Source: Nitrospirota bacterium | GTDB taxonomy: Bacteria; Nitrospirota; UBA9217 | Assembly: GCA_963790205.1 (NCBI GenBank) | Contig: CAWBNQ010000001.1 | Location: 992,001-1,056,000 of the forward strand | DNA: 64,000 bases | Direction of reading: 5' to 3' | Shown: positions 27,130-51,341 of the stretch, piece by piece | How the letters are laid out: each line of letters begins with the position of its first letter | Numbering within the stretch: position 1 is the first letter of the stretch | The notes under the pieces: model-generated | Database searches by the model: none | The model's input: only the letters and a program-made list of their open reading frames with translations | Told to the model about the DNA's origin: nothing | Position numbers and translations under genes: made by a program

Positions 27130-27148
27130 GTATTCGAAAATCGAATAC
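27130..27148. promoter_or_regulatory. Inverted repeat GTATTCGA-N3-TCGAATAC, candidate enhancer (UAS)
   Basis: Perfect 8-bp arms about 130 bp upstream of a sigma54 motif. Confidence 0.45.
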
Positions 27149-27275
27149 TTTTTTTCGATAATCAAATAAGAACCCCCGGTCTCCGACCCATCCACATTGC
27201 TCCGTCTAACCACAAGCATTTGTATCAAAAAGACATTTCTCTCATCAGTTCCGGTTCTATTCATATAATTTTGCT

Positions 27276-27292
27276 TTGGCATGACGGATGCA
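27276..27292 (+). promoter_or_regulatory. Sigma54 -24/-12 promoter TTGGCATGACGGATGCA
   Basis: GG-N10-GC spacing in TGGCA..TGCA context, upstream of the PP2C start at 27350. Confidence 0.7.
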
Positions 27293-27349
27293 CTGTAATG
27301 GCTCGATGAGATTAAACAGAGTATTCGTTTGGCAAAGCAGGAGCCGGTC

Positions 27350-28273
27350 ATGATACCTGAGTCGATAAGCTGTCTAAAAAAGATCATGGGTGTAAAAGAA
27401 GAGCAGAAGACAAAAACAGTGAGTCATGAGAAACCCGGCGAAGCGAGCCGGGTGCTTCAGCCAGCATATACGTTGAGGCTCAAACCTGAGTCGGAGGCAC
27501 AGGCGGCGTCCGCTGAAACCGTGCAAACAACAGAAGCCCGGACTGTTCCTCTGAACATCTCGTGGAACGGCTGCACGGCGATCGGTATGATGAGAGACCA
27601 TAACGAGGACAATTATGCTTACCTTCTTTTCGGAGAAAAATCGCTCTTTGTGGTCGCGGACGGCATGGGGGGGCACGACGCCGGAGAAGTTGCGAGCAGG
27701 ATAGCGGTGGAGACCGTGTGCGAGGAAATGAGAAAAGGAGCGAAGACGGACCGCGATCCGCAGGGGCTTGTCGAGCTCGCCGTTCAGCGGGCCAATAATG
27801 AGGTGCGGCGCGAAGGCGCAAGCAAAAAGTCGGACATGGGCACAACGTTGAGCGTCGCACTGATCGCCGATAATACCGCGTATATAGCGAATGTCGGGGA
27901 CAGCAGGGTCTACTGGATAGAAAATGGATCGATCACCCAGATAACCGAAGACCATTCCCTGGTGGCGAAACTGGTCGCCGTGGGAAAGCTGACGCGGGAA
28001 GAGGCCAGGGGCCACCCCCGATCGAACCTGCTCTACCGCACCATCGGAAACGATGAGACCGTCAAGGTGGATACATTTCAAGTGGCGCTGAAAAAGGGCG
28101 GCAGCCTCCTGCTCTGTACCGACGGGTTGTGGGGAGAGGTGGCCGATCAAGAAATTCACAAAGTTTTCGCTGCGGGAAGCGATGCAAAGACCGCCTGCGC
28201 CACGCTGGTGCAGATGGCAAACGAGAACGGCGGGAAGGACAATATTACGGCAATGGTGGTGAAAGTATTTTGA
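27350..28273 (+). CDS. PP2C-family Ser/Thr phosphatase (Stp1/PrpC-like) with N-terminal extension
   Basis: RDHNED, VADGMGG, MGTT, NVGDSR, CTDGL, GGKDNIT. Confidence 0.95.
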   Translation: MIPESISCLKKIMGVKEEQKTKTVSHEKPGEASRVLQPAYTLRLKPESEAQAASAETVQTTEARTVPLNISWNGCTAIGMMRDHNEDNYAYLLFGEKSLFVVADGMGGHDAGEVASRIAVETVCEEMRKGAKTDRDPQGLVELAVQRANNEVRREGASKKSDMGTTLSVALIADNTAYIANVGDSRVYWIENGSITQITEDHSLVAKLVAVGKLTREEARGHPRSNLLYRTIGNDETVKVDTFQVALKKGGSLLLCTDGLWGEVADQEIHKVFAAGSDAKTACATLVQMANENGGKDNITAMVVKVF

Positions 28274-28341
28274 GATGCAGGATATAACCAACTCCAGCAT
28301 GCAGCATGGATCATGAGGTATTGATAGAAGGAGGAATCAAA

Positions 28342-29613
28342 ATGAAAAGCGATCTGGATGTACGAAGCGTTATGAGCAAGGACTCGCTGTTGACCGTGGG
28401 TACCGAACAGGCGGTCTATGCACTGGTGAAGATCCGCCCCGGGGGCGGAACCGCGCTCGGCGAGATGCCGGCGAATTTCGCCCTGGTCCTGGACCGGAGC
28501 GGTTCCATGGACGGCGAGAAGATGGACAATGTAAAGGAGGCGGTTGGATACGTGGTGGACCACCTGAACGATACGGACCGTGTCTCGATCACGATCTTCG
28601 ACGATCAGGTGGAGACGCTGGTACCGAGCCGGTCCGCGAAGGACCGGGAAGAGATCAAAGGCAAAGTCGCCGCCGTGATCGCGCGCGGCGGCACCCAGAT
28701 ATCGGACGGCCTCAAGGCAGGCCTGGCGGAGGTGAGAAAGGGATACGCGAAGGACCGCGTCAACCGGATACTCTTGCTCACGGACGGCCAGACGTGGGAC
28801 GATGAAGACGCCTGTATGAAGCTTGCCGACGAAGCGGGGAAGGAAGGCATCGCGGTCACGAGCATCGGCATCGGCGAGGAGTGGAACGAGAAGCTCCTGC
28901 TCCAGATCGCCGAACGATCGCACGGCGACTCGCACTGGATCGAGAGCCCTCTCTCCATCCTCGACGCCTTCCGGCAGGAGGTGGAGGGCATGCAGTCCGT
29001 AACGGCTACGAACCTCAAGGTCACGGCCCGCATGAGTCCCGGGGTGAAGCCGGTAAAGGTGTACGCCACGGTCCCGATGATCGTTGATGTGAGCAAAAAG
29101 GCCGTGAGCGGAAGCAGCGTCGCAGTGGACCTGGGAGCTTTCGACGGTAAGAAGGGCCAGGCAGTGCTGATCGAGGCGCGCATCGCGCCGCAGAAAGAGG
29201 GCAGGTTCCGCCTGGGTCAGGTGGAAGCAACCTATGACGTCCCGTCGCAGGGCGCCATCGGACTGAGCGTGAAGTCGGACCTCTTTGTAACAATGACCGG
29301 CGACGCAGCGGCCGCAGCGAAGGTGAACGCCGAGGTGATGAACCTCGTGGAGAAAGTGAGCGCGTTCAAGCTGCAGACCAGGGCGCTCACCGAAGCAGAG
29401 GCAGGGAACATCGCGGCAGCCACGCAGAAGCTGCAGGCTGCGGCCACGGTATTTCTGAACATGGGAGAGGATGACCTCGCGGAAGCGGCGGAGCAGGAGA
29501 TCCTCTCGCTCAAGAAGACCGGCTCGCTCACCGCTGCGGGCACCAAGAAGCTTGAATACGGCACGAGGAAGCTGACCCGGGCGATGACGGAGAACATGAA
29601 AAAAACCGCATGA
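28342..29613 (+). CDS. VWA domain protein
   Basis: MIDAS DRSGSM, GGT, LTDG; helical C-terminal tail. Confidence 0.92.
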   Translation: MKSDLDVRSVMSKDSLLTVGTEQAVYALVKIRPGGGTALGEMPANFALVLDRSGSMDGEKMDNVKEAVGYVVDHLNDTDRVSITIFDDQVETLVPSRSAKDREEIKGKVAAVIARGGTQISDGLKAGLAEVRKGYAKDRVNRILLLTDGQTWDDEDACMKLADEAGKEGIAVTSIGIGEEWNEKLLLQIAERSHGDSHWIESPLSILDAFRQEVEGMQSVTATNLKVTARMSPGVKPVKVYATVPMIVDVSKKAVSGSSVAVDLGAFDGKKGQAVLIEARIAPQKEGRFRLGQVEATYDVPSQGAIGLSVKSDLFVTMTGDAAAAAKVNAEVMNLVEKVSAFKLQTRALTEAEAGNIAAATQKLQAAATVFLNMGEDDLAEAAEQEILSLKKTGSLTAAGTKKLEYGTRKLTRAMTENMKKTA

Positions 29614-29712
29614 GCAAAGGACAGAACGTCCTGTGCGGACCACCCCTCATCACTGCCCTCCTCTGAGAGGAGGAAGGGGAGAGGGAACGTGAAAAAAAAG
29701 GAGAATATTGCC

Positions 29713-30150
29713 ATGAAATGCAAAGAATGTCAGATGGAAAACATCGAAGGAGCGCTCTTCTGTGAAGAGTGCGGAGCAAGGTTGACGGAAGAACCGGAGG
29801 TCCTCGATACCGGCGTCGAACCGGAGGTCGAGCATATGGTTCTTGCGACTTCTGACGGAAGCACGCTGGAGATCCCGGCCAAGGACGAGGTCGTGATCGG
29901 CAGAGAAGATCCGATCAGCGAAGTGTTCCCTGATGTGGACCTCACGGGCCTGGGCGGCATGGAGAACGGCGTTTCCCGGAAACACGCGGTCATTCACCGC
30001 ACGGGCGCGGACTATACCGTCGAGGACATGGGTTCCACGAACGGTACTTACATCAACAGGAAGAAGCTCCAGCCCCACGCGCCGCAGGCCATCAAGCCTG
30101 GCGACGAATTGAGGTTCGGAAAGTTGTCGCTGAAGCTAAAGGCGGCGTAG
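29713..30150 (+). CDS. Zinc-ribbon plus FHA domain protein
   Basis: CKEC..CEEC; IGR, VSRKH, STNGT. Confidence 0.92.
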   Translation: MKCKECQMENIEGALFCEECGARLTEEPEVLDTGVEPEVEHMVLATSDGSTLEIPAKDEVVIGREDPISEVFPDVDLTGLGGMENGVSRKHAVIHRTGADYTVEDMGSTNGTYINRKKLQPHAPQAIKPGDELRFGKLSLKLKAA

Positions 30151-30258
30151 GGAATCAACGAAAGGACGATGACGACGGGAGTTGCAACGTCGTCTCTCGT
30201 CAGCGCGAGCAGGGCGCACGCTCGTCTATCGTCCCTCGTTCAAGGAAGGGAGGCAACC

Positions 30259-32502
30259 ATGCCCAGAACATCAAAAATAGTATTCTACGCCCTCGCGGGC
30301 GCTTTCGGCGGGGCCGCGGCGTGGGTGTTCGTGCTGTTCCTGTCAAGCGTCTCCGAAGGAGGGCTCCGAACAGAGGTCCTGCTCGGCGCCCTTTCGGGCA
30401 TGTTCATAGGCGCGTTCATCTGGAGCCATGAGATGATCACAGGAAGGCAATTCAAAGCCGCGGTCAAACGCGCCGGTTTCGGCGCCGCAGCAGGGATCCT
30501 CGGCGGAGCCCTGGGTGCGGCACTGGGCAATACGATCTTCACGGCCCTCGGCAAATTCGTTGCCGATGCCGGAGGAATCCGGGCCTCAGCGGGCCTGGCC
30601 CTTGCGGTAGGCCTCGGCTGGTCCGTCCTCGGCGCAACCGTGGGCCTCTCCGGGGGTCTGATGGTGCGTTCCCGGGAACGTACCCTCTATGGACTGGCAG
30701 GCGGCTCGCTCGGCGGGCTTATCGGCGGGCTCGTGTTCTACGGCCTGTCGGCAACCTCGCTCTGGTCGTCCCTGGCAGGCTTGTTCCTGCTCGGAATGTC
30801 GATCGGGGCTTTCATCAGTCTCGTTGAAGAGGCGTTCGTATCGGCAAAGGTGAAGGTTATCAAGGGAAGGCACATCAACAGGGAGTTCCCGCTTTTGAAG
30901 GAATTAAACGTCGTGGGCAGGGACGACCGTTCCGACGTCTGTCTCTCGGGCGCGGAAGGGGTCGGCATGCACCATGCGATCATCAAACGGACGAACGGTC
31001 ATTTTGCCGTCGAAAGCGACGAGGAGGGAAAGGTCGTGTACGTGAACCAGAAAATGACAACCAGCAGCAGCCTTCGTGACGGCGATGTGATCCGCGTCGG
31101 CAGCATCCTCCTTATGTTCAACGCAGTAAGGAAGGCCGCGGCAGTCGCGATCGCCGCCGGTATCCTGTTCATCGGCCTGAACAGCTCGACTGCGGGAGAG
31201 CCGGCCCGGATGCAGATCACCCAGTTCGACCTTTCGGGCTTTCCCACGGTCAAGGCTTACGTATCCATCCTGGACAAGGACGGCAAGCCCGTGCGCGGGC
31301 TCGACCAGCGCATCCTGTCCCTCAAGGAGAACGGTCTTCACGCGGACATCCGCGATATGAGCATGGCGGGGATCAACGGACAAAAAAAAGAGCCGCTGTC
31401 AATAGCCCTGGTGATCGACCGGAGCGGTTCGATGGCAGGAGAAAAGCTGGCCCGGGCAAAGGAGTCAGTCATCAGGTTCCTTTCGCTCATGGAAAAAGGC
31501 GACCGGGCGGCCCTTTTCGCGTTCAGTGACCGGGTGACGGAACTCGTGCCGCTCACCGACAATGTCGAGTCGCTGAAGACCTCGGTGTCCGCCATCGAGG
31601 CGGACGGTCATACGGCGCTCTATGACGCCATTTCCCAGGGCGTGGATTCCCTCAAGGCGGAACCGGGCCGCAAGGCAGTGATCGTGCTCACCGACGGGAT
31701 CGCGAACCGGGGCGTGATCGACATCGCCCAGGCGATCACGGCCGGGTTCAAGTCCTACGTCTCGGTCTACACCATCGGCATCGGCGAGGACGTCCGGACG
31801 GACCGGCTCGAGCGGATCGCGGAAGAGACCGGCGGCACGTATTTCTTCACACCGTCGCCCGACAGGCTGGTATCGATCTATGAAACCATCAGCCACCGGA
31901 TCAAAAACGAGTACGCGATTACGTACGGCACGGACCGGCGCAAAGAGTTCCTCCGGACGGTATCGCTCGAACTGAAGGGCGGGCCTGTTGCCGAGCGGGC
32001 ATACTTCCAGCCGCAATCGTCGCTTTTCGGCGCGGCCGGAAAACCGCCCCGGTGGGCATATGGTGTTCCCCTTTTGGGACTCCTGGGACTCGTTGCCCTG
32101 TCGCTCAGAAAGATCGAGCAGGAGTATGAGACCGCCCACTTAAGTCTCGTGCGCGGCAGGGGAACGAGAAAGGACATCGACATCAGGGACACGGTGACCA
32201 TCGGCAGGGACGAACGAAACACCATCGGACTTTTTAAGGACGACCTTATCGCGCAGCAGCATGCCGAGTTCATCAATGAGAACGGACGCACTGTTGTCGC
32301 GGACAAGGGGTCCGCAACCGGCACGTTCGTGAACAAGAAAAAGGTAACGGGCAGGCAGGCGCTCAAGGACGGCGACGTCATTGACGTTGGAAAGGCCACG
32401 ATCGTGTTCAGCGAGGGAAGCACGAGGACCTGCAAGGACTGCGGAGAGCCGGTAAGGGAAGGGGCGAAGTTCTGCCCAAAGTGCGGGGTGAAGGCGGCGT
32501 AG
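30259..32502 (+). CDS. Multi-pass membrane FHA-VWA-FHA-zinc ribbon protein
   Basis: Gly-rich TMs; VGR..HHA FHA-like; TM; DRSGSM/LTDG VWA; TM; IGR..QHA..SATGT FHA; CKDC..CPKC. Confidence 0.88.
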   Translation: MPRTSKIVFYALAGAFGGAAAWVFVLFLSSVSEGGLRTEVLLGALSGMFIGAFIWSHEMITGRQFKAAVKRAGFGAAAGILGGALGAALGNTIFTALGKFVADAGGIRASAGLALAVGLGWSVLGATVGLSGGLMVRSRERTLYGLAGGSLGGLIGGLVFYGLSATSLWSSLAGLFLLGMSIGAFISLVEEAFVSAKVKVIKGRHINREFPLLKELNVVGRDDRSDVCLSGAEGVGMHHAIIKRTNGHFAVESDEEGKVVYVNQKMTTSSSLRDGDVIRVGSILLMFNAVRKAAAVAIAAGILFIGLNSSTAGEPARMQITQFDLSGFPTVKAYVSILDKDGKPVRGLDQRILSLKENGLHADIRDMSMAGINGQKKEPLSIALVIDRSGSMAGEKLARAKESVIRFLSLMEKGDRAALFAFSDRVTELVPLTDNVESLKTSVSAIEADGHTALYDAISQGVDSLKAEPGRKAVIVLTDGIANRGVIDIAQAITAGFKSYVSVYTIGIGEDVRTDRLERIAEETGGTYFFTPSPDRLVSIYETISHRIKNEYAITYGTDRRKEFLRTVSLELKGGPVAERAYFQPQSSLFGAAGKPPRWAYGVPLLGLLGLVALSLRKIEQEYETAHLSLVRGRGTRKDIDIRDTVTIGRDERNTIGLFKDDLIAQQHAEFINENGRTVVADKGSATGTFVNKKKVTGRQALKDGDVIDVGKATIVFSEGSTRTCKDCGEPVREGAKFCPKCGVKAA

Positions 32503-32574
32503 CTTTTTGCCACGAAGGCACCAAGTTAAATGAATTTGAGTTTCTTCGTGTCTTTGTAGCTCAAGTATTTTACC

Positions 32575-33774
32575 ATGAAAAAGCTTCTCAAAAAAAGATA
32601 CGAGATCAAGGGCGTGCTCGGCAGGGGCGGGATGGGGTGCGTGTACAAGGTCGTGGACCGTTCCGAGAGAGGAAGGGTTCTGGCAGTCAAAGAGCTCCAG
32701 GTCGGAACTATCAGCACGGAAAAGCTCCAGGAAGCCGTCACTCAGTTTCAGACCGAGGCAAGAATCCTTGCGCGGCTCACGCATCCGAACATCCCGAAGG
32801 TCTATGATTACTTCTCGCTCCGCGGCGCGTACTATATCGTCATGGAATATATCGAAGGCACGACGCTGGAACAGCTCCTTGCAGCGCGGCAGGGCAAACC
32901 GGTCAATGAGCGTCTGGCGCTTTCGTGGGCGCTTCAGATCTGCCGTGCCATGCACTTTTTGAGCGTGCAGAAGCCGCAGCCGATCGTTTTCCGGGACCTG
33001 AAGCCTTCGAATATCATGATCAGCCGCGACGGGAGGGTGAAACTGATCGACTTCGGCATCGCCCGCTTCTTTAAAGAGGAAAAGCTCGAGGACACGTTCG
33101 TGTACGGCACGCCGGGCTATGCCTCGCCCGAGCAGTACGGTTCCGGCCAGACCGACGCGCGCTCGGACATCTTCTCTCTGGGCGCGACGCTCCATCACGC
33201 TCTCACCGGAAGGAGCCCGTCATTGAGCCCCCTGGATTTTCCGGACCCGCGGGAATTGAATCCGAAGCTGAGCCGGGAGACATCGGCCATTATCAGGAAG
33301 GCGCTCTCGCCGCATATGGAAAAACGATATCAGAGCGCGTTGGAAATGAAAATGGCTGTCCAGAAAGTACTGCTCGCCTTACCTGCTACGGTAAAGGGAA
33401 CAAAAAAGATCATTTACGCCAGACCGGGGAAAATGGTCAAGCTTCCGTGGTGGAGAAAGGTCTCCTGGGTGAGCGTGCCGGTGATGACGCTCGGCTTGAG
33501 CGGGACCACGGGGACCCTCACGACGGACGATCTGTGGATAAAGCCAAGGATGGGAGACTTCGGCCCGTCCGCAGCGCGGCTGCTGTTTCGCGTGGAGACC
33601 GGCATGCTGAAACCGGGCAGGCAGTACCGGCCCCACATCACGATACGGACCGACGCGGGGACCATCCGGCCCCAGCTCCTGTTCAGAAAGCCGTGGCCGT
33701 GGTCCCTTATCGGAGCAGCAGTGGGAGCAGCAGTGATCGCAGTGGCGCTCGCGCTTGCCGCCATGATGAAATAA
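32575..33774 (+). CDS. Hanks-type Ser/Thr protein kinase with C-terminal TM
   Basis: GRGGMG, AVK, FRDLKPSN, DFG, GTPGYASPE. Confidence 0.96.
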   Translation: MKKLLKKRYEIKGVLGRGGMGCVYKVVDRSERGRVLAVKELQVGTISTEKLQEAVTQFQTEARILARLTHPNIPKVYDYFSLRGAYYIVMEYIEGTTLEQLLAARQGKPVNERLALSWALQICRAMHFLSVQKPQPIVFRDLKPSNIMISRDGRVKLIDFGIARFFKEEKLEDTFVYGTPGYASPEQYGSGQTDARSDIFSLGATLHHALTGRSPSLSPLDFPDPRELNPKLSRETSAIIRKALSPHMEKRYQSALEMKMAVQKVLLALPATVKGTKKIIYARPGKMVKLPWWRKVSWVSVPVMTLGLSGTTGTLTTDDLWIKPRMGDFGPSAARLLFRVETGMLKPGRQYRPHITIRTDAGTIRPQLLFRKPWPWSLIGAAVGAAVIAVALALAAMMK

Positions 33775-33907
33775 GAAAATGTCTTCTGTTCCCTGCATCT
33801 TCTTGTGCGCAGTTTCCGCGGGCCCTCTTTATTTTTCCCCTTGTCTTTTCCCGCTGCTTATAGTAGTTTCTTTGAAAAGAACGGTTCTCCGAACGCTACA
33901 TTTAAAA

Positions 33908-34744
33908 ATGGAAAACGAAAGGAGATTGGACGTGTCTCATCGAAGAAAATTTACGGCAATAGCAATACTGTGTTTTGTGTTTGCGAGCGCGGAAAGCGGT
34001 TTCGCCGAAGAATTAAAGAAATATACAGGGGAAGTAGGACCCGAGATATCGTATTTTGCATATGAGGAACCTCATTTTGCGGAAACCAGGGGTTTTCTCG
34101 CGGGAATAGCCGGTTCCTTCACGTATCATGATAAGCTCATGCTAAAGGCGGAGGGCCGGTTCAGTTTCGGCAGCCTCTATTACACTTCTCCCGACAGCGG
34201 AACGATGGAAAACATACCGGATTATATAGGGGAGTTCAGGGGGTTAAGCGGTTATGATTTTTCGCTCCAGTCCGGATCCATCCTTACGCCGTATCTGGGT
34301 CTAGGATATCGATACTTGAATGACGACAGCTCCGGGAAGGTCACTTCCCTGGGCGCTCTTGGATATGAACGGGAATCAAATTATTATTACAGCCCCGTAG
34401 GAGTAAAGTTTACTACCAATACAAAGACCGGCTGGTCGACCGAGGCAACGGCCGAGTATGACATTTTCTGGTGGGGAAAACAGATAAGTCATCTGAGCGA
34501 CGCCAATCCCGGTCTGAATGACCCTAAAAACCGCCAAAAACGGGGTTACGGTTTGAGAGGCTCGGTAGCGTTTCGAACGAAGGTCGATGATTTTGCTTAT
34601 TCGATAGAGCCTTTCATACGATATTGGAACATCAAGGACTCCGAACTCGCTACCTTGACCTATTTGGGCTCAATAGCCGGCGTGGGGTTTGAGCCGGCAA
34701 ATCACTCCGCAGAATACGGTGTCAACTTTTTGGTTCGGTTCTGA
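33908..34744 (+). CDS. Outer-membrane beta-barrel protein
   Basis: Signal peptide, alternating aromatic strands, C-terminal VRF; start uncertain. Confidence 0.7.
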   Translation: MENERRLDVSHRRKFTAIAILCFVFASAESGFAEELKKYTGEVGPEISYFAYEEPHFAETRGFLAGIAGSFTYHDKLMLKAEGRFSFGSLYYTSPDSGTMENIPDYIGEFRGLSGYDFSLQSGSILTPYLGLGYRYLNDDSSGKVTSLGALGYERESNYYYSPVGVKFTTNTKTGWSTEATAEYDIFWWGKQISHLSDANPGLNDPKNRQKRGYGLRGSVAFRTKVDDFAYSIEPFIRYWNIKDSELATLTYLGSIAGVGFEPANHSAEYGVNFLVRF

Positions 34745-34911
34745 ACCCGTGAGAGGCTGCTGGAAAACTTTTTGAACGTCATTGAGCGGCGCCTTTTTAC
34801 GACGAGGCAATCGTGAAGCGATCGTCTTCATGAACAGAACGATTGCGTCGCTTCTCCCGCAAAAACACCTTTCCCGGCTTTTCACGGGAGATCAAGATTA
34901 AGGGAAACATC

Positions 34912-36258
34912 TTAGTCCCTCATCCCGTACTTCTTTATCTTTTCATACAGGGTGGAATAGGCAATGCCGAGGACCTTCGCTGCTTCGGTCTTGTTTCCGG
35001 AGACCGACCTGAGCGTAGCGTGGATCGCGGCCTTTTCGATCTCCTCGAGCGTTTTACCGCTCAGGCCTTCGAGGGTGTCCGTTTTCCTCCCCTGGGACAG
35101 GAAGAGGTCCCTGACCTCGATCCGGCTGCCGTTGCTCAAAGCCGCTGCGCGACCGAGGACGTTCTTGAGCTCGCGCACGTTGCCCGGCCACGGGTACGCG
35201 CGAAGCGCTTCCGCGGCTTCCGGCGAGAGTCCCTGAAGTCTCTTGCCCGTGTCGGCAAATATCCCGTCAAGCAGCTGCTCGGCGATCGGCTCGATGTCTT
35301 CCTTATGTTTTCGGAGGGGGAGGAGAGAGACGCTGACGGCGGAGAGACGGTAAAAAAGGTCTTCGCGAAAACGACCGGCCTTTACTTCTTTTTCCAGATC
35401 GCGGTTGGTGGCCGCGACCACCCTCACGTTCACCTTGAGCGCCTGATCGGCGCCGACCCGCTTCACTTCGTGCTGATCAAGGGCGCGAAGAAGCTTGGGC
35501 TGAAGGGCCGGCGTAAGCTCGCCGATCTCGTCCAGGAACAAGGTGCCGCCATCAGCCAGTTCGATGGCCCCCTGGCGGGACTTGACCGCGTCGGTGAAAG
35601 CCCCCTTTTCGTGGCCGAACAGTTCGCTCTCGATCAGGGTCGGGGCCACGGCGCCGCAGTCGAACACGACAAACGGCTTGTCGGCCCTGCGGCTGCTGCT
35701 GTGGATGGCCCGCGCCGCGAGCTCTTTTCCCGTACCGGTCTCTCCTTGGATGAGCACGGCGATGTCCGTGGGCGCTACGCGTTCGAGGATGCCGAAGATC
35801 TCCCGCATGGGCAGTGACGGGCCGATAAGATCGCCGAAGCGGTCCGCGGAGCTTTGCACGGTCTCGATCCGTTCCTCCAGAGGAGAAAAAGCTATATCCG
35901 TCTCTCCCAGTCGGATCGCGGAGCCCGCGGCCAGATATCCTTCCCGTATCCGCGCGCCCTCGAGGAACGTGCCGTTGGTGCTGCCCAGGTCGCGCAGAAC
36001 GTAGCCATCGGCTTTTTCTTCAACTACAGCATGATGTCGGGAAATCGTGGGATCGGTGAGCACGAGGTCGTTCTCGGGAAGCGTGCCGATCGTGACAAGT
36101 GGTTTCTGGAGCACGATCTCCTTGCCCTTGTCCTTACCCCTGGTCACAACGAAGCGCGCCTTTTTCAGGATCAGCGGCCTCTGGATGGCCGCGGGCAGGA
36201 GTCGGGTCTGGTCACGGTCCTTCCCGGAGGTATCGCTTTTTTCGCTCTGTTTGGCCAT
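34912..36258 (-). CDS. FHA-domain sigma54-dependent transcriptional activator
   Basis: FHA (ISRHH, STNGT); GETGTGKE, ESELFGHEKGAFTDA, LFLDEIGE, WPGNVREL; Fis-type HTH. Confidence 0.95.
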   Translation of the reverse strand: MAKQSEKSDTSGKDRDQTRLLPAAIQRPLILKKARFVVTRGKDKGKEIVLQKPLVTIGTLPENDLVLTDPTISRHHAVVEEKADGYVLRDLGSTNGTFLEGARIREGYLAAGSAIRLGETDIAFSPLEERIETVQSSADRFGDLIGPSLPMREIFGILERVAPTDIAVLIQGETGTGKELAARAIHSSSRRADKPFVVFDCGAVAPTLIESELFGHEKGAFTDAVKSRQGAIELADGGTLFLDEIGELTPALQPKLLRALDQHEVKRVGADQALKVNVRVVAATNRDLEKEVKAGRFREDLFYRLSAVSVSLLPLRKHKEDIEPIAEQLLDGIFADTGKRLQGLSPEAAEALRAYPWPGNVRELKNVLGRAAALSNGSRIEVRDLFLSQGRKTDTLEGLSGKTLEEIEKAAIHATLRSVSGNKTEAAKVLGIAYSTLYEKIKKYGMRD

Positions 36259-36466
36259 GTCACAATTGTATCATACTGGGCCGGAGAGAACAAACTGTTC
36301 CTGGCGTCATTTTTTGCGGCGAATTGGAGGGAACCGATAATATCTCTTGACATGAACGGCAATTCAATTAAACTATTGTCAATTGTCCTAGCGACCAGTT
36401 TATGATAACAAGGATTTGAGGAAATAGGGTGACACTCCAAAGTTAGGTTTTGAAAGGAGTGTCATC

Positions 36467-38014
36467 ATGAAACCAGAAAAGAGTATACAGCAAGTAGGCA
36501 GGAAAAGGAAGTTCCCGAAACGAAGCAAGCGGTATGGACCGGATTTCAAGCTTCAAGTCGTCAAAAAGTTTGTTGAAGAAAGCGTCCCTGCTTCGGTGAT
36601 TCGGCAGGAATGCGGATTGAGCAGTGGGACGGTCGGGCGCTGGGTGCGCGACTATCGTCGTCATGGCGAAGCGGGGCTCGCAACGCATTACAGAGGTAAG
36701 GGGCGCAGTCTTCCTTCTCCGGTAAGGCAGAAGATCGTCGAGGTAAAAGAAGCCAACCCGCTCTTCGGCATCAAGCGCATTTCACAGGTTTTAAAGAGGG
36801 CGTTTTTTCTTTCCGCCAGCCCTGAAACAGTCCGCAAGACCCTTCACGATTCATCCCTCATCAAGTCCCCGCCTAAGAAGCGTCAGCGTAATATCACCCG
36901 TCCCCGTTTTTTCGAACGATCAACGCCGAACCAGCTGTGGCAAACGGACATCTTCACGTTCCGTCTTGGCGGCCACTATGCGTACCTGATCGGCTACATC
37001 GATGATTACTCCCGCTACATCACGGGGCTCGAGCTTTTCCGCACTCAGACGGGCCAGAACGTTATCGAGGTATACCGCCGGGCGTCCTCCGAGTACAACC
37101 CGCCGAAAGAGATGCTCACGGATAACGGGCGGCAGTATACGAGCTGGCGCGGGCACAGCCGTTTTGAGCTGGAGCTCAAGAAAGACAAGATCCACCACAT
37201 CAAATCCCAACCACACCACCCTATGACCCTGGGCAAAATCGAACGGTTCTGGAAGACGATCTACCTGGAGTTTCTTGTCAGAGCGCAGTTCGATAGCTTC
37301 GAGGACGCCGCCGAGCGGATACGGCAGTGGGTGAAGTATTACAACCACAAACGACCGCACCAGGGGATCGGCGGCCTGTGTCCCGCGGACCGGTATTTTG
37401 AGATCCAGAGCGAGCTCAGGAAGACGATCGAGCATGGCATCCAGGAGAATCTCCTCGAGATGGCGCTCCGCGGGAAGCCCAAGCTGCCGTTCTACATGGT
37501 GGGCCGCATGGAGGGGCAGTCGGTAGTGCTGCGGGCGGAAAAGGGCAAGCTGCGTCTATCGGTTGACGATGAAGAGGATGACACCACGCAGGAAGTAGTC
37601 TACAATCTAAACGAAGAAGGGGCCGGCCATGGAAAAAACGGAGAAGATAAAAAGCGAGAAGAAGCGGCAGATGACAAACCACGGGGCGATGGAGAAATGC
37701 CGGGCGGTTCTCTCAATATGGACGGAGCGGCGGAGGCCGGCGGAAGTATGCCGGGAGATGGGGATACCGTGGATGGTGCTCTCCCAGTGGCAGAAACGGG
37801 CGATGGAGGGAATGCTCCAGGCTCTGGAACCCCGGGTGATCCTGGACAAGGGGCCGGCGCTCAGCCCGCGGCTGCAGACGATGCTGGAGAAAAAGCGCCT
37901 GATGCTCCCGGTACAGAACAGGCTGGAAAAGACGCTGTCGAAGGCGCAGGAAGCAAGGAAACCGGAGAAGCTAAAGGACCTGAAGCCCGAAAGCTCCCCC
38001 CTGCGCAAGGCTGA
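36467..38014 (+). CDS. DDE transposase (HTH plus rve integrase core)
   Basis: PNQLWQTD, IDDYSR, TDNGRQY, GKIERFW, YNHKRPHQG. Confidence 0.92.
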   Translation: MKPEKSIQQVGRKRKFPKRSKRYGPDFKLQVVKKFVEESVPASVIRQECGLSSGTVGRWVRDYRRHGEAGLATHYRGKGRSLPSPVRQKIVEVKEANPLFGIKRISQVLKRAFFLSASPETVRKTLHDSSLIKSPPKKRQRNITRPRFFERSTPNQLWQTDIFTFRLGGHYAYLIGYIDDYSRYITGLELFRTQTGQNVIEVYRRASSEYNPPKEMLTDNGRQYTSWRGHSRFELELKKDKIHHIKSQPHHPMTLGKIERFWKTIYLEFLVRAQFDSFEDAAERIRQWVKYYNHKRPHQGIGGLCPADRYFEIQSELRKTIEHGIQENLLEMALRGKPKLPFYMVGRMEGQSVVLRAEKGKLRLSVDDEEDDTTQEVVYNLNEEGAGHGKNGEDKKREEAADDKPRGDGEMPGGSLNMDGAAEAGGSMPGDGDTVDGALPVAETGDGGNAPGSGTPGDPGQGAGAQPAAADDAGEKAPDAPGTEQAGKDAVEGAGSKETGEAKGPEARKLPPAQG

Positions 38015-38024
38015 GACCCCATAA
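37629..38024 (+). CDS. Small HTH-like protein overlapping the transposase 3' end
   Basis: KCRAVLSIW..PAEVCREMGI..LSQWQKRAMEGMLQAL, similar to the next ORF. Confidence 0.6.
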   Translation: MEKTEKIKSEKKRQMTNHGAMEKCRAVLSIWTERRRPAEVCREMGIPWMVLSQWQKRAMEGMLQALEPRVILDKGPALSPRLQTMLEKKRLMLPVQNRLEKTLSKAQEARKPEKLKDLKPESSPLRKAETP

Positions 38025-38041
38025 CGGAAAGGTCGGTGTGC

Positions 38042-38422
38042 ATGAGCGACTCAGAAGACAAGGAGCTTGCCCGAAAGCGGACTGCGGTGGTGTTTGCAGT
38101 GCGCAGCGGCCAGATCACGGCCGAGGAAGGCGCACGGAGGCTCGGCGTGTCGCGGAAGACCTACTACGAGTGGGAGCGCCGGGCATTACAGGCGATGACC
38201 GAGGCCATGGAGGATAAATCCCCTGGAAGGCCGAGTATACCGCAGGACGAGGAGAAACAGCGTTTACAGGAGCAAATCGCTGAGCTCCAGAACAAGCTCT
38301 TTGTCGCTAAGAAAACGGTAGAAGTGCGGGACATGCTGCACGCGTATGAACTCCACAATGCCCGTGTGAAAAAAAGAGCTGACGAGTCGGAGGAAAAAAA
38401 ACGAAAGCGAAGGAAGAAATGA
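38042..38422 (+). CDS. HTH domain protein of the element
   Basis: TAEEGARRLGVSRKTYYEWERRAL..PGRP, then coiled coil. Confidence 0.8.
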   Translation: MSDSEDKELARKRTAVVFAVRSGQITAEEGARRLGVSRKTYYEWERRALQAMTEAMEDKSPGRPSIPQDEEKQRLQEQIAELQNKLFVAKKTVEVRDMLHAYELHNARVKKRADESEEKKRKRRKK

Positions 38423-39459
38423 TAACCAGTATGCTTGCCGTTGTTGACCGGATGAGAGAGAAAACCGGTATGCACTACCAGGAGATCTGCAGTGCCGTGA
38501 GGCTCCCCTACCCGAGCTTTATCCGTTGGCGTCTGCGACAGAAGAACGCCACGCCCCTCGTGCGGCAACCGGGTCCTCCCAAGGTCAAGCCTCCGGATCT
38601 TGAGGGGATTACAGGGGATATCGCAAAGCTGTCTCACGGGCAGAGCCGCACGCAGGGCACGGGCGCATTATACGGGAGCCACGCGTCCTCTGTGTCACGG
38701 CGAGACCTGCAGAGCATCGCTATGGCGAGGCATGACCTCAATACACTCCATCGTCAGAATCTGCGGCGGATCAGCTGGAACGTGCCAAACGTCGCGTGGT
38801 CAATGGACCCCTGTGAATACAAACATCGTGACACAGACGGTGGCAAGGTGTACCTGAACCATATGCAGGACCTCGCGTCTCGCTACAAGTTCACTCCTAT
38901 GACGGGAGATGTGCCCTGCGGCGAAGAGATATCCGGCTATCTCGCAGCGACCTTCGATCGCTTCGGTGCGCCTCTGTTCCTCAAGCGCGACAATGGCGCG
39001 AACCTGAATCATGCAGCGGTCAATGCTGTGCTCGCCGACTACTTCGTCCTGCCGTTGAACAGTCCAGTCCATTATCCGCCCTACAACGGCGCGATCGAAG
39101 AGGCACAAACCGAGCTGAAGAACGGGCTTGCTGCAAAACTCTTGTATAAGTCCAGTTGTCCGCGCGAGCACATGGAGGCATATGCATCGACGGTTGAACA
39201 TGACCTTAACCACCAACCCCGTCCGTGCCTGCATGGCGGCAACGCCTGCCAAGTGTACTTCACGAACAAAAAAACGTTTACCAAATGGGAAAGGAGCGCT
39301 GCCTATGACTGGATGACAAACTTGCAAGGTGATATACTATGCAGTGATGGTAGTGTTCAGTCGCAAGCAGCCTGGCGGATCGCCGTCGAGGCCTGGCTGA
39401 GGATGAAAGGGTTTATTACCGTTACGATCAACGGAAAAGTGTCACCCAATTTTCTCTAG
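38419..39459 (+). CDS. Second integrase-core (DDE) protein
   Basis: PNVAWSMD, QDLASRY, KRDNGAN, YNGAIE. Confidence 0.82.
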   Translation: MITSMLAVVDRMREKTGMHYQEICSAVRLPYPSFIRWRLRQKNATPLVRQPGPPKVKPPDLEGITGDIAKLSHGQSRTQGTGALYGSHASSVSRRDLQSIAMARHDLNTLHRQNLRRISWNVPNVAWSMDPCEYKHRDTDGGKVYLNHMQDLASRYKFTPMTGDVPCGEEISGYLAATFDRFGAPLFLKRDNGANLNHAAVNAVLADYFVLPLNSPVHYPPYNGAIEEAQTELKNGLAAKLLYKSSCPREHMEAYASTVEHDLNHQPRPCLHGGNACQVYFTNKKTFTKWERSAAYDWMTNLQGDILCSDGSVQSQAAWRIAVEAWLRMKGFITVTINGKVSPNFL

Positions 39460-39600
39460 GATTTTTATCATAAACTGCTAGCGTGCACATGGTCACGGCA
39501 CTCATTTTTGCACTCTGTTGGCTCGGGGAAATATGTTTTGCAGGTTTTTAAAGAAAGCGAGAGTTTTACGTCTTAGTCAGTTGGTTGTGCAAGCGAAAAA

Positions 39601-47694: not shown

Positions 47695-49112
47695 AACTGC
47701 AACCTACAGGCTTCGTAGCCAATCTAAGGCATTTTGTTCTTTAGTAAAAAAGTACTCACTTTCAGAAGCCTTGCCGTTCGTGCAACGCAACGCGTGTAGC
47801 AATGTTCCGAAAGTGAACGAAGATTATTTAAAACTTAAAGCAGCTTTATTCAATTCACGTGCTAAACGAATCACATGGCCGACGCTATTATCATTTCTTT
47901 GTTCCTCCGCCAGCCATGTACTTGCTTTTTTGATATACTCTAAAGATTTTTTGTCACGATATTTATGCCAGTATTGGAGCGAATGATCTGCATATGTCAT
48001 CGCATGAAATGTCTTTCTAATGTCGGATGAGTAACATTCCTCTAGCGAATTCATACTTTCATCCAGTGCTTTGCGTACTTCAGCACTATTCTCTCTGCTG
48101 ATATTGGCTCGAAATTTAATAATAGCATATGAATTTTTGATTGACCAATTCTTAGACCCTGCTGTGGAAATTGCCTCGTCAATCACTTTAAAGGCATCCT
48201 GATGGTCGCCACGACGGCTTAAATATAGAGCCTTTTGTTGTAAATTGAAAGGCGATTGATGTTTTTTATAAATAACATCATAAACCCGGGCACCATCTTT
48301 AACATTCGGAAATGCTCGTTCAAAAAGCCTCGCATCATATGCTCTTCTTTTGAAAGCTTCAAAATTGGGGATACTATATCTGCTTACATTATTATAAAAA
48401 GTAGTAAGCATTTTTGCTAAATCTTCAGCAGGTGCGATCTTATATATCAAATCTGCAAGCATATTCGACCTTATATTGAAATAGTCTTGATCCTGCTCTA
48501 CAAGTTCACCTGCATATTCAGTGATACTACTGCCTAGAATATCTATAAGATCGTAAATATCTTTATAGTTTTTTGCCGAGGTCGAAAAATAACTTAATAG
48601 TATATCCATTGATGCAATGCTTCGTGAGGTATGTAAATAACAAATAAGTAAAAATAAACTTACAAGGTCATCATTTTTGGACCTAAGATCTTTCATTACG
48701 CTGCTAAACCTGCTTTTGATGTTAGGTGATTTACAGTTTTTTTCTATTAATTCGAATAGTGAATCTCCTTCACTAAATTTATGAATATTATTCGCTTTAA
48801 TGTCTGATGGAATATTGCCAATTATCTTCTGGGCGTCTGCTTCATCTAGTTCAGTCACATCGTAAACTGACATTGACTTAGACAAAAAAGGGCTACTTGA
48901 TGAAGAGAGGTATGCATAATCTCTTTCGGAAATAACTAATCTAATGTTTTCTTTTTTTGAAAGTATCTCTAGTGCGTCAATCGATGACTGGAACTCATCT
49001 ACAAATAAGATTGCAGGGGCTAGGCCAATTCCAGATGCAATAGTCTGTGCTTTCTCTTTAGAGATAGCTTTTATGAATAATTTAAACCCTGCAAAGTCAT
49101 AAAAGGCTGCTA

Positions 49113-50213
49113 ATACAAACGCACTAAGTAATGTTACAAAGTCGCCTGACTTTGTGCTTTGACCACGAGTCAAGCGTCCTTTGGACCGTTGCCCAGATTG
49201 CGTCAAGGTTATCGAACCACCGGTTGGTAGTTGATTCATAGCGAATCTGGCGCCATATGCGCTCCTGCATATTCAAGGCAGGCTGATATGGTGGTAAGTA
49301 CACAATCCGGAGTCGTTTATGCTTTCTGAGAAACTCCCGGATTGGGTCACCCCTATGCCAACGAGCTCGGTCAACATACAGCCAGATAGTGTAGCCACGA
49401 AGCTGGCTATAAAGGTGCCGCAGCACTTTGAGAAAACCTTCTCGGTTGCCACGTTCCGTTTGGATGACGCCGGCACGAGCCAGAAGAGGAGCCACCCAGC
49501 CGGAAACATTCAAACGTTTCTGATGCTGGCTGGTTGTCGGCACTTTCAACCGTTTCCCGATGAGCGCCCAGCCGCGGCCAAGCCGAGGGTGCAGAGTAAA
49601 ACCGCATTCGTCCTGAAAAACCACAGTTTCTTTAGGACCCAGCGTTTTGAGTTTTTTTTAGGCTCCTGGCAAACTTCTTCGCGTCTTCTGCCTTTGCCTG
49701 GAGATAAACGTGATTGGCTCGCTTTAACCGATACCCAAGTTGATGCATCCAGTATTGGGCCTGACGGACTTTCAGCTTTATCCCGAACTGGCGCTGTAAA
49801 TGAGTTGCCAAAGTGGGGCCATCCCATCGAATACGATTTAAGCCGAACTTCTGGGGCGATTCCTCCAGTTGAAGCTCTAGCTGAGCTACGATCTTAGGAG
49901 TCATCCGAACTGGACGGCCTGACTGCTTTTTCGGGACAAGGGCTTCTACTCCGTCCTTGTTTACCGCCCGCGTCCAGCGGTTTACGTTCATCCGGGTCTG
50001 GCCTAGGACTTCTGAGATCCACCCCGGTCGTTGACCCTCCATTACCAAGAGGAGGGTAGCTATCTTTATGCCGATCCAAGCTCCTGGCACCTTCTCTGCG
50101 AGGGCCAGCAATTGCTCTTTGGACACCTTTATTGGGCTTGCAGGGGATGTTTTCATGCCCCCAGAATAACATAAAGTATGGTTAAAGTGTAACAATATTT
50201 ACTGCGTTTGTAT
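49113..50213 (-). mobile_element. IS630-family insertion sequence
   Basis: 25/28 inverted repeats including flanking TA (49111-49112, 50214-50215); reconstructed target CTAG. Confidence 0.93.
49124..50156 (-). CDS. IS630 transposase in two frames (50156-49632; 49624-49124) joined at an A8 run
   Basis: HTH part GRP..RWDG; catalytic part FQDECGF, YVDRARWH, LPPYQPALNMQERIW. Confidence 0.88.
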
Positions 50214-51341
50214 TAGTTGCATCAATAAAGTAGTCTTTCCTATTGCAGGTCCACCCGTTATTAAAATATTTTTATTGCTATTTATTTTTTCTACTATTTT
50301 ATCGTAGAATCGTACTCTGCATACTCTTGGAGAGTAAATGTCACTCCAGGTTGGGGACGCGCCTTGAAAATAGTCTTGAATTGATCTATGTTCGACGGCA
50401 GAATTGCTGGGAATGGAGTATTCGGGATATGGGTGTTGAGGGTGCCCTGTCGATTCTTTATCGCTGATTTTACTACTTTTAAATTTTTCAAGGTATTTAA
50501 GGAATTCCGCGGTATCTGCTTTAATTATGTTTAGACCGAGTGATTTATAATAATCTATTTCTCCGTCGACTATATATTTTGGAGCAAGAATTATCCACGA
50601 TTCCTTATGATTATGTTCCTTTAAAGCATTGGCAAAGACTTGTAATGTCCCTGCATCTTTTAAAGCATAGCCCCAAAACAATGTTGGGAAACGACTCATC
50701 AAAGATGTTAAATAATTCCATCTCGCTGGGTCACGGGAAAAAGCACTCGCAATATCTAAATCACCAAATACTAAAGGCGACCCTTTGTCTAAAACTGAAC
50801 CATGCATATAATAAAAATCAATGGCTTGTTTGTCTTGAAAGCTTGCGCCATTAAGGTTCGCATCATTAATATATTTAGAGGGGCTTGATTCAAATATCTT
50901 CTGAAAGAGATTGTCTATGTTAGTGGTAAATACATTTTTTATCGAGACATATTCAATATTATTGTAAAGACTGTCGAAAGTACATACAGAAAACCTATTG
51001 TGCAAGTAATTATAAAGCTCTTCTTTTTTTGTTCGCGATATTAAAGTGCATAATTGGGGTAACTCTAAGGCATTCGGTGCTCCTGGAAATGCTGCAATGA
51101 GCTCAGTCTTCAATGCACTTCCTGCAGGTAAGATTCTTTCTGAACAATCTTTTGCAAGAACAGAAAAACCAGCGCCTGTAAACAGATTTATGCCCGATTG
51201 CAGACGTTTTTCAAAGGTATTAATAAATTCGATTTCCATAAGTTCTCCTAACGAGTCCAACTTGTCTAATACGGGTAACAAAGAATCAGGCGTGCAGGCT
51301 ACTTACGCAATCCTTGGGACATTACTTTATTAAGCCAGTAC

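Follow-up and report, generated by a model that had tools for sequence, protein, structure and literature searches.

A conserved operon of ArnA/ArnB-like phosphothreonine-signalling genes behind a predicted sigma-54 promoter and tandem enhancer in Nitrospirota

How might a set of Ser/Thr-signalling proteins be switched on as one unit and joined directly to transcription, a task that usually falls to two-component systems? This question is raised by a gene cluster in a 64,000-nucleotide stretch of a Nitrospirota genome (G000:C1:992001-1056000, here called the window; genome 4.34 Mb, 98% complete), in which genes for a phosphatase, a vWA protein, a zinc-ribbon FHA protein, a membrane FHA-vWA-FHA protein and a Ser/Thr kinase are faced by a convergent gene for an FHA-type sigma-54 activator. 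A sequence-only reading of the window had drawn these genes, together with a beta-barrel gene, as one self-contained loop under sigma-54 control. Comparison with relatives indicates an ArnA/ArnB-like operon behind a conserved predicted sigma-54 promoter and a tandem enhancer, probably served by the FHA activator and tied to a second operon elsewhere in the genome. The elements of the system in the window are as follows.

27130..27148 (no strand): enhancer site 1, a perfect palindrome with 8-bp arms; 17-bp core at 27131-27147
27152..27168 (no strand): enhancer site 2, a degenerate copy two helical turns past site 1
27276..27292 (plus): sigma-54 -24/-12 box, GG-N10-GC; predicted transcription start near 27303
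27350..28273 (plus): PP2C phosphatase (Stp1/IreP-type); NF033484 above cut-off; conserved Thr-containing N-terminal motif
28342..29613 (plus): ArnB-like protein; vWA whose MIDAS (adhesion site dependent on a metal ion) is intact, an inserted beta-sandwich and, at the C-terminus, a helical bundle carrying invariant threonines
29713..30150 (plus): ArnA-like protein; C4 zinc ribbon and canonical FHA domain
30259..32502 (plus): membrane FHA-vWA-FHA protein; about six Gly-rich transmembrane (TM) helices, then FHA, TM, vWA, TM, FHA and C4 zinc ribbon
32575..33774 (plus): STK1, Hanks-type RD kinase; C-terminal beta domain and tail anchor
34912..36258 (minus): sigma-54 activator built of tail, FHA, AAA+ and helix-turn-helix (HTH); GAFTDA loop, Walker motifs, N-terminal D-x-T-x-x-L
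36265..36273 (minus): extended -10 element of the activator promoter, 6 nucleotides before the ATG; predicted leaderless and sigma-70-type

The likely gene starts on the plus strand (27350, 28342, 29713, 30259, 32575 and 33908) were chosen from ribosome-binding sites and the starts of orthologues. A Pfam scan gave PP2C, vWA, zinc ribbon plus FHA, FHA plus vWA plus FHA and Ser/Thr kinase for the operon, and FHA, Sigma54_activat and HTH_8 for the minus-strand gene. All of the domain calls made from the sequence alone were thereby confirmed, that of the barrel only below threshold; the C-terminal zinc ribbon of the membrane protein had been overlooked, as had enhancer site 2.

The palindrome and the sigma-54 motif that the sequence-only reading had proposed are both present, the palindrome being GTATTCGA-AAA-TCGAATAC at 27130-27148. 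By itself the box is at chance level in the window (3 matches with at most one mismatch, shuffle mean 2.06, 35 of 100 shuffles reaching 3), and the enhancer core is above chance (3 matches with at most one mismatch, shuffle mean 0.20, none of 100 shuffles reaching 3), two exact core matches lying 21 bp apart. Site 1 is the top-scoring site of the genome at 31.2 bits, the next unrelated site scoring 19.2, and its core is nearly invariant among relatives. We accept the palindrome and the box as real because the tandem enhancer and the box recur in all 32 loci with at least 1.3 kbp upstream of the vWA gene (31 relatives and the window), and not on the strength of the box alone. The matrices for enhancer and promoter were built from 28 of these 32 loci; the remaining four (the window among them), together with the sister family and the unlinked sites described below, were out of sample. 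The two enhancer sites are spaced by 20–23 bp in 32/32 loci, and the enhancer core is found in 41 of the 64 family genomes versus 2 of 64 for a backwards control. A diverged tandem site with a sigma-54 box is kept in the sister family. From site 2 to the box the distance is 130–136 bp in 21 loci, 121–123 bp in seven, 110–111 bp in two and 91 bp in one, with one more at the edge of the main cluster; these steps of about one helical turn suggest looping of the intervening DNA, but do not make a clean statistic, periods of 11 bp (R 0.73) and 14 bp (R 0.67) being nearly equal and the loci being kin. Three candidates were put aside in this survey: a second GG-N10-GC at 27329, found in the window only among the loci compared; lone enhancer-core matches in genomes G022, G055 and G058, taken as chance because both a second site and a sigma-54 box are absent; and a long fixed-spacing enhancer pattern, which failed to detect the site in the window and gave way to the core pattern.

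The operon and the activator gene are inherited together. The vWA gene was found in 38 of the 64 family genomes and the activator in 36 (whole-protein query) or 38 (query with the N-terminal part). Among the 38 genomes that are at least 90% complete, 25 have both, 13 have neither and none is discordant, if two copies that were seen frameshifted or cut by a contig end are counted as present; the discordant genomes are all 63–88% complete. A lack of co-occurrence of activator and motif with the operon in other genomes, named beforehand as an outcome that would tell against the sigma-54 circuit, was not encountered among these. In a phylum sample of 301 genomes, the vWA and activator genes are confined to this family and one sister family (there in 4/6 and 5/6 genomes), with 0/231 in the others. 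All five genes stand in the order of the window in 27 of 38 fetched relative loci, ten being cut by contig ends, and identities are 60–78% with fixed gene order across genera. The remaining locus (L022, G062:C78) is a natural deletion: the phosphatase gene is missing, the promoter lies 114 bp before the vWA gene, the rest of the operon is kept, and a second phosphatase gene (PP2C2, below) remains. The activator gene is convergent beside STK1 in 20 of the 31 loci that hold STK1, and five others end within 1.1 kbp. A cluster search had been proposed as a check on the order of the genes and their promoter, and both are conserved.

The activator itself has what an enhancer-binding protein of sigma-54 should have. 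The AAA+ domain matches PF00158 at 229 bits and the HTH matches PF02954, the G-A-F-T-(D/G)-A loop is seen in 22/22 activators, and Walker A, Walker B and the C-terminal HTH are present. The genome encodes rpoN (430 bits), and the tandem sites lie upstream within the 80–200 bp expected between such sites and a -24/-12 promoter. Of 24 sigma-54-activator-like matches counted genome-wide, this is the only one with an FHA domain, and we infer that it is the binder of the tandem enhancer. On the grounds of linkage, co-occurrence and motif, the FHA-AAA+-HTH protein very probably drives the sigma-54 promoter of the operon. The three proposals of sigma-54 control, an enhancer and coupling to the convergent activator all withstand the conservation test that the sequence-only reading had set.

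The activator gene is likely to be leaderless and to stand outside sigma-54 control, because in 19/19 loci an extended -10 element, TG-n-TA(C/A)AAT, is separated from its start codon by six or seven bases. The single loop that was thought to include this gene is thus not borne out. A 3,106-bp insertion sequence (36384-39489 of the window), whose inverted ends read TG...CA and which holds two open reading frames (ORFs) of integrase-core type, lies 125 bp upstream of the activator and leaves its -10 element untouched; eight near-identical full copies in the genome indicate recent activity.

The circuit is not self-contained either. A second operon, FHA2-PP2C2-STK2, lies on a separate contig from the window (C14:238321-240681) and carries the fifth of the genome's five FHA domains, the other four being at the locus in the window. 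Of 18 relatives, 15 have this operon back to back with the activator gene, some without FHA2 or PP2C2, and STK2 is present in 42 of 42 genomes that have the vWA gene or the activator and in one of the 22 others (this survey covered the 64 family genomes). Its promoter is of the sigma-70 type (TTGAC-N18-TA(T/C/G)AT) in 15/15 relatives and in this genome. STK2 carries a single TM helix with a conserved E/D-x-E-T-hydrophobic motif in the juxtamembrane region, and its outer tail is of low complexity. Separation of the two loci by the insertion sequence is unsupported, as relatives of genus g3 that lack this element also have the second operon apart.

A genome-wide scan for the enhancer with the box gave exactly two matches, this locus and C3:364343 on the minus strand, and none in the reversed genome. 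The gene behind the second match encodes 292 amino acids that start like a signal peptide, include a beta sheet at the C-terminal end and finish in Phe, and matches no Pfam family. Its fold model has a mean pLDDT score (predicted local distance difference test) of 47, and only the C-terminal six-stranded sheet is credible; in a structure search no match reached Z 8 (best Z 7.4 for Omp33, root-mean-square deviation 3.5 over 82 aligned residues), and the Atlas matches were unnamed clusters. Homologues occur in 8/64 family genomes, all with the operon, and five of the seven that can be scored retain enhancer and box. In four relatives the same promoter precedes a 111-aa two-helix membrane protein that starts D-E/Q-T-V-V; these cases were found through the motif itself, and the gene was not found in the genome of the window. 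Duplicated enhancer fragments with no sigma-54 box lie near this 111-aa target at L044:82-145 and in L061 (G050), and three further sites have no clear downstream gene.

What the operon makes resembles the archaeal ArnA/ArnB pair. The vWA protein, modelled at pLDDT 85, matched 4fx5 (TM score 0.78), ArnB 8s05_A (E = 1.7e-26, TM score 0.65/0.71) and 5a8j (0.57/0.64) in Foldseek, with Vwa2, inter-alpha-inhibitor and Sec23/24 ranked lower, and the model has the ArnB build of a vWA domain split by a beta-sandwich and followed by a C-terminal helical bundle. ArnB (8s05_A) is also among its top PDB sequence matches, and the best PDB sequence matches of the zinc-ribbon FHA protein are ArnA itself (5a8i, 8s05_C). 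In 23/23 sequences the MIDAS residues D51, S53, S55, T118 and D148 of the ArnB-like protein are invariant, as are the four Cys, G63-R64, S88-R89-x-H91 and N110 of the ArnA-like one. Of the C-terminal threonines of the ArnB-like protein, T408 and T412 are invariant and T393 and T401 are at least 90% conserved; these C-termini resemble those in other phyla. The predicted complex of the two proteins scored 0.82 against 0.34 for the best control (a mark reached by 116 of 157 solved pairs and 2 of 215 mismatched pairs), with at least 69% of contacts shared between runs and a partner pLDDT of at least 78. In it, the zinc ribbon (residues 11–28) lies on residues 12–26, 326–328 and 333–373 of the vWA protein, namely the first beta loop (beta1-beta2), the linker and the helical bundle, the same three elements that the zinc finger contacts in the ArnAB crystal according to the available text of PMC12852372. 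The vWA protein is accordingly predicted to have the ArnB fold and the zinc ribbon to dock where ArnA docks on ArnB, although the score may reflect likeness to the solved complex and would then speak for likeness, not binding.

Catalytic residues are intact in 29/29 kinase and 34/34 phosphatase sequences. STK1 is tail-anchored and lacks an outer sensor domain; its C-terminal part closes with a TM helix, is free of any Cys cluster and gave no zinc-ribbon or oligonucleotide/oligosaccharide-binding (OB) match in Pfam. The membrane protein has an intact vWA MIDAS in 29/29 sequences and a zinc ribbon with the same spacing as the ArnA-like one. With its topology taken from family-averaged hydropathy, its vWA domain would be periplasmic if the FHA domains are inside.

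A possible clue to the switch is a threonine ahead of the activator's FHA domain. An N-terminal D-x-T with a hydrophobic residue at +3 is found in 20/20 family activators and as D-T-T-L-K-I in two from the sister family; a conserved Thr stands about 20–40 residues ahead of the FHA domain in both the activator and FHA2, and a Thr motif is present in all 14 FHA2 sequences listed. The activator thus has the arrangement of a tail switch, and GarA and OdhI are the best PDB matches of its FHA domain, which retains S73-R74-x-H76 and S93-T94-N95. The DgcB equivalents of these retained residues make five of the six phosphate contacts listed in the accessible part of PMC6733907. Gating of the activator by phosphothreonine (pThr) is likely, judged from these motifs. 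A profile search with the N-terminal part of the activator gave matches dominated by multi-FHA proteins.

We therefore propose a model in two layers, and give it as a whole a rough probability of 55%. A constitutive layer (activator, STK2, FHA2 and PP2C2) would be the trigger, and a sigma-54 layer (the five-gene operon and the exported C3 target) the response. STK2, a likely constitutive membrane kinase, would phosphorylate the D-x-T-x-x-hydrophobic tails of the activator (T18) and of the OdhI/GarA-like FHA2; binding of tail to FHA domain between subunits, as in DgcB, would promote assembly of the AAA+ oligomer at the tandem enhancer and open the sigma-54 promoter of the operon, with FHA2 and PP2C2 setting the threshold. 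The proteins made in response would come together at the inner membrane, where STK1 would phosphorylate the C-terminal threonines of the ArnB-like protein and the ArnA-like FHA domain would lock on, and the induced PP2C, whose gene opens the operon, would dampen this response. Three features hint at a signal from the cell envelope or from surface contact: the vWA domain predicted to be periplasmic, STK2's periplasmic tail and the exported C3 target. It is possible, if somewhat doubtful, that all of this amounts to an ArnA/ArnB complex with a Sec23/24-like core on a periplasm-sensing vWA receptor, with a sigma-54 activator gated by its own phosphopeptide and a small envelope regulon; docking of zinc ribbons onto the vWA receptor would then assemble the complex at the inner membrane.

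Several observations weigh against this model. The FHA domain of the activator has lost the Arg of the GR motif in 22/22 sequences (19 Thr, 2 Ser, 1 Gly), so that of the canonical pThr-binding set (GR, SxxH, NG) only the latter two are present. In the membrane protein, FHA 1 has GR in 29/29 sequences, the Ser in 1/29 and no NG, and FHA 2 has the Arg in 23/29 and the Asn in 0/29, neither being a canonical pThr binder. The view that all of the FHA domains read pThr is thus unsupported, as only two of the genome's five have the full GR/SxxH/NG set. Six of 31 loci run at least 4 kbp past STK1 without meeting the activator, which is also unlinked to the operon in the sister family, and two of the seven scorable homologues of the C3 target lack the enhancer. 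In genome G023 (97% complete) a small gene is preceded by an enhancer and box that look intact, yet vWA, activator and STK2 gave no match; this promoter may be a relic, or may indicate use of the site by some other activator. Moreover, the genomes compared are kin and not independent, and the counts of co-occurrence and order overstate their significance.

The missing Arg speaks for an alternative in which phosphate plays no part in the switch. As with PspA and PspF, a default-active activator would be held through its atypical FHA domain by the membrane complex or by FHA2 until envelope stress releases it, and the kinases would act on the ArnA/ArnB-like core only. The degenerate FHA domains of the membrane protein are still strongly conserved, which speaks for this reading, and ArnA and ArnB are described as negative regulators in Sulfolobus in the available text of PMC12852372. 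We nevertheless consider it unlikely, given that the invariant tail Thr and the hydrophobic +3 residue of the activator and FHA2, and the kept S-R-x-H and S-T-N, fit recognition of pThr.

Operons under sigma-54 are silent without activation, and this bears on the loop as it was drawn at first, in which the membrane vWA protein senses, STK1 phosphorylates the proteins of its own operon and the activator's FHA domain reads the mark, with no outside kinase. STK1 is intact and tail-anchored, the ArnB-like protein has invariant C-terminal T-x-x-L motifs and the activator is beside the operon in the 20 loci mentioned; but because such an operon is silent until activated, its own kinase could not start the loop unless there is leak. 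With STK2 co-inherited and adjoining the activator in most relatives, and with a conserved tail Thr in the activator itself, a closed loop seems distinctly improbable.

A defence role, either against phages or against tellurite stress, was suggested by vWA, PP2C and kinase standing together as in TerY-P, by the patchy presence in 38/64 family genomes and by a variable slot beside the operon that sometimes holds toxin-antitoxin-like genes. It is very improbable: the kinase lacks the C-terminal zinc-ribbon/OB fusion given as the defining trait of TerY-P in the available text of PMC11090510, no PADLOC model matches the vWA, zinc-ribbon FHA or membrane protein and the kinase matches are generic, the conserved core has no effector gene, and the 60–78% identity with fixed order resembles vertically inherited signalling genes. 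Equally remote is the idea that the palindrome is the intrinsic terminator of the upstream gene or the site of an unrelated regulator, with the activator linked by history only, for although the window has a hairpin followed by a T run that was called terminator-like, the genome has 23 other activator-like genes and G023 is an exception, a T run of at least five is found in only 3/29 loci (on which ground the terminator was rejected), the primary sequence is conserved including its 3-nucleotide centre with no compensatory change, a second copy follows at 20–23 bp, the genes upstream differ between loci, and unlinked genes are preceded by the same arrangement.

Two further features of the locus lie outside the conserved system.

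27213..27225 (no strand): possible integration host factor (IHF) site, weak, between enhancer and promoter; 2 mismatches to the IHF consensus
33908..34744 (plus): outer-membrane barrel gene, in a variable slot

The genome has an ihfA-like gene, and an IHF-like site with 0–1 mismatch to the consensus is found in 7/32 loci versus 5.6% of shuffles, which is weak. The barrel gene, which had been counted as part of the circuit, is a passenger: it was unmatched in every fetched locus, its GC content is 0.48 and that at third codon positions (GC3) 0.52 versus 0.55–0.62 and 0.66–0.81 in its neighbours, and the slot between kinase and activator varies from 109 to 4,432 bp in linked loci and is filled by unrelated genes. 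Its autotransporter-type match is weak (23.1 bits, under the Pfam cut-off of 26). Elsewhere in the window a low-GC island (47824-51281, minus strand, 0.39–0.43) holds an ORF of SIR2-like/ATPase type, with weak PADLOC matches to Dsr1 and ThsA, and a downstream 471-aa ORF, apparently one defence-type gene broken across frames. A third PP2C-kinase pair (C3:407015-408679) and a lone kinase (C3:332913-333803) could cross-talk with the system. In the sister family the phosphatase is longer (about 520 aa; L076:10544-12151, L077:1503-3074) and begins with a zinc ribbon and a kinase-like region, as it does in Chloroflexota at about 630 aa, the present family having a shortened form. Close homologues of the system are labelled Nitrospirota; a 3-kbp contig labelled Bacteroidetes (L108), with Nitrospirota-type genes at 71% identity, is probably mis-binned.

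If the wider reading with a periplasm-sensing vWA receptor is true, the locus would amount to a full counterpart of a two-component system made with Ser/Thr kinases. It supplies an enhancer sequence, a promoter, an activator, a candidate phosphosite and two candidate kinases, parts small enough to be rebuilt in a laboratory rpoN+ strain, where one reporter could address both how an ArnA/ArnB-type switch reaches transcription and which targets and kinases belong to an FHA-type activator; the hosts are uncultured, and the four-gene core has precedents. We found no description of the full layout in the open-access full-text literature. For sigma-54 activators of the FHA type, to our knowledge, targets and kinases are ill defined. 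In Myxococcus xanthus, Jelsbak, Givskov and Kaiser reportedly proposed in 2005 that FHA-AAA+-HTH activators link Ser/Thr kinases to sigma-54; the locus described here differs in having one activator with an identifiable tandem enhancer, a regulon of two to three members and two co-inherited kinases.

DgcB of Bdellovibrio, in the available text of PMC6733907, shares with OdhI, GarA and the activator an N-terminal tail Thr before the FHA domain with a hydrophobic residue at +3; the output here, however, is an AAA+ sigma-54 activator and not a cyclase or enzyme inhibitor, and the FHA domain lacks the Arg equivalent to R61 of DgcB. The TerY-P systems, as far as PMC11090510 describes them in the text available, also combine vWA, PP2C and Ser/Thr kinase in one operon, but STK1 lacks the C-terminal zinc-ribbon/OB fold and is membrane-anchored, the vWA protein is built of three domains like ArnB, and FHA proteins and sigma-54 control are added. 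TerY-P triads had been named for comparison; in sequence, fold and predicted complex ArnA/ArnB is closer.

The four-gene core of vWA, kinase, FHA and PP2C has already been characterised in Deinococcus radiodurans, where the operon DRA0331-DRA0334 encodes a vWA protein, a membrane Ser/Thr kinase, a FraH-like FHA protein that boosts the kinase's phosphorylation and a PP2C that reverses it (bioRxiv 10.64898/2026.01.23.701218). This likeness was judged by description, not by sequence, and the accessible part of that report describes neither a sigma-54 activator nor a membrane FHA-vWA-FHA protein nor a second operon; Deinococcus plasmid vWA matches were rejected as DRA0331-type operons, being other loci. 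Related PP2C-vWA-(Zn-FHA)-(kinase) clusters occur in Chloroflexota and Latescibacterota, and related clusters also in cyanobacteria; among 40 fetched non-Nitrospirota loci (2–21 kbp long) none has an FHA-type sigma-54 activator, a membrane FHA-vWA-FHA protein or the second operon. Two tandem ArnB-like genes are frequent in the Chloroflexota and cyanobacterial loci (L124, L125, L127, L128, L149, L152, L159), recalling a Sec23/Sec24-like pair.

The closest relative in design remains the ArnA/ArnB module of Sulfolobus acidocaldarius, for which the available texts of PMC6509490 and PMC12852372 give ArnC and ArnD as kinases and PP2A as phosphatase. In both systems a zinc-finger FHA protein stands beside a vWA/beta-sandwich/helical-bundle protein with C-terminal threonines, with the same fold and the same docking site predicted for the zinc finger; the present locus differs in being bacterial, at 19% identity, with a PP2C instead of a PP2A and a tail-anchored kinase. 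It works like ArnA/ArnB but is not an archaellum regulator, because the host is bacterial, the phosphatase is a PP2C and no motility gene lies behind either of the two enhancer-promoter matches of the genome-wide scan. In Sulfolobus the route from ArnA/ArnB to transcription is stated to be not yet settled in the accessible part of PMC12852372. What is new here is an ArnA/ArnB-like operon behind a conserved predicted sigma-54 promoter and a tandem enhancer with its own FHA activator, to which the membrane FHA-vWA-FHA protein is added, and it would, if the model is true, be the first switch of this type with a defined, direct read-out on DNA.

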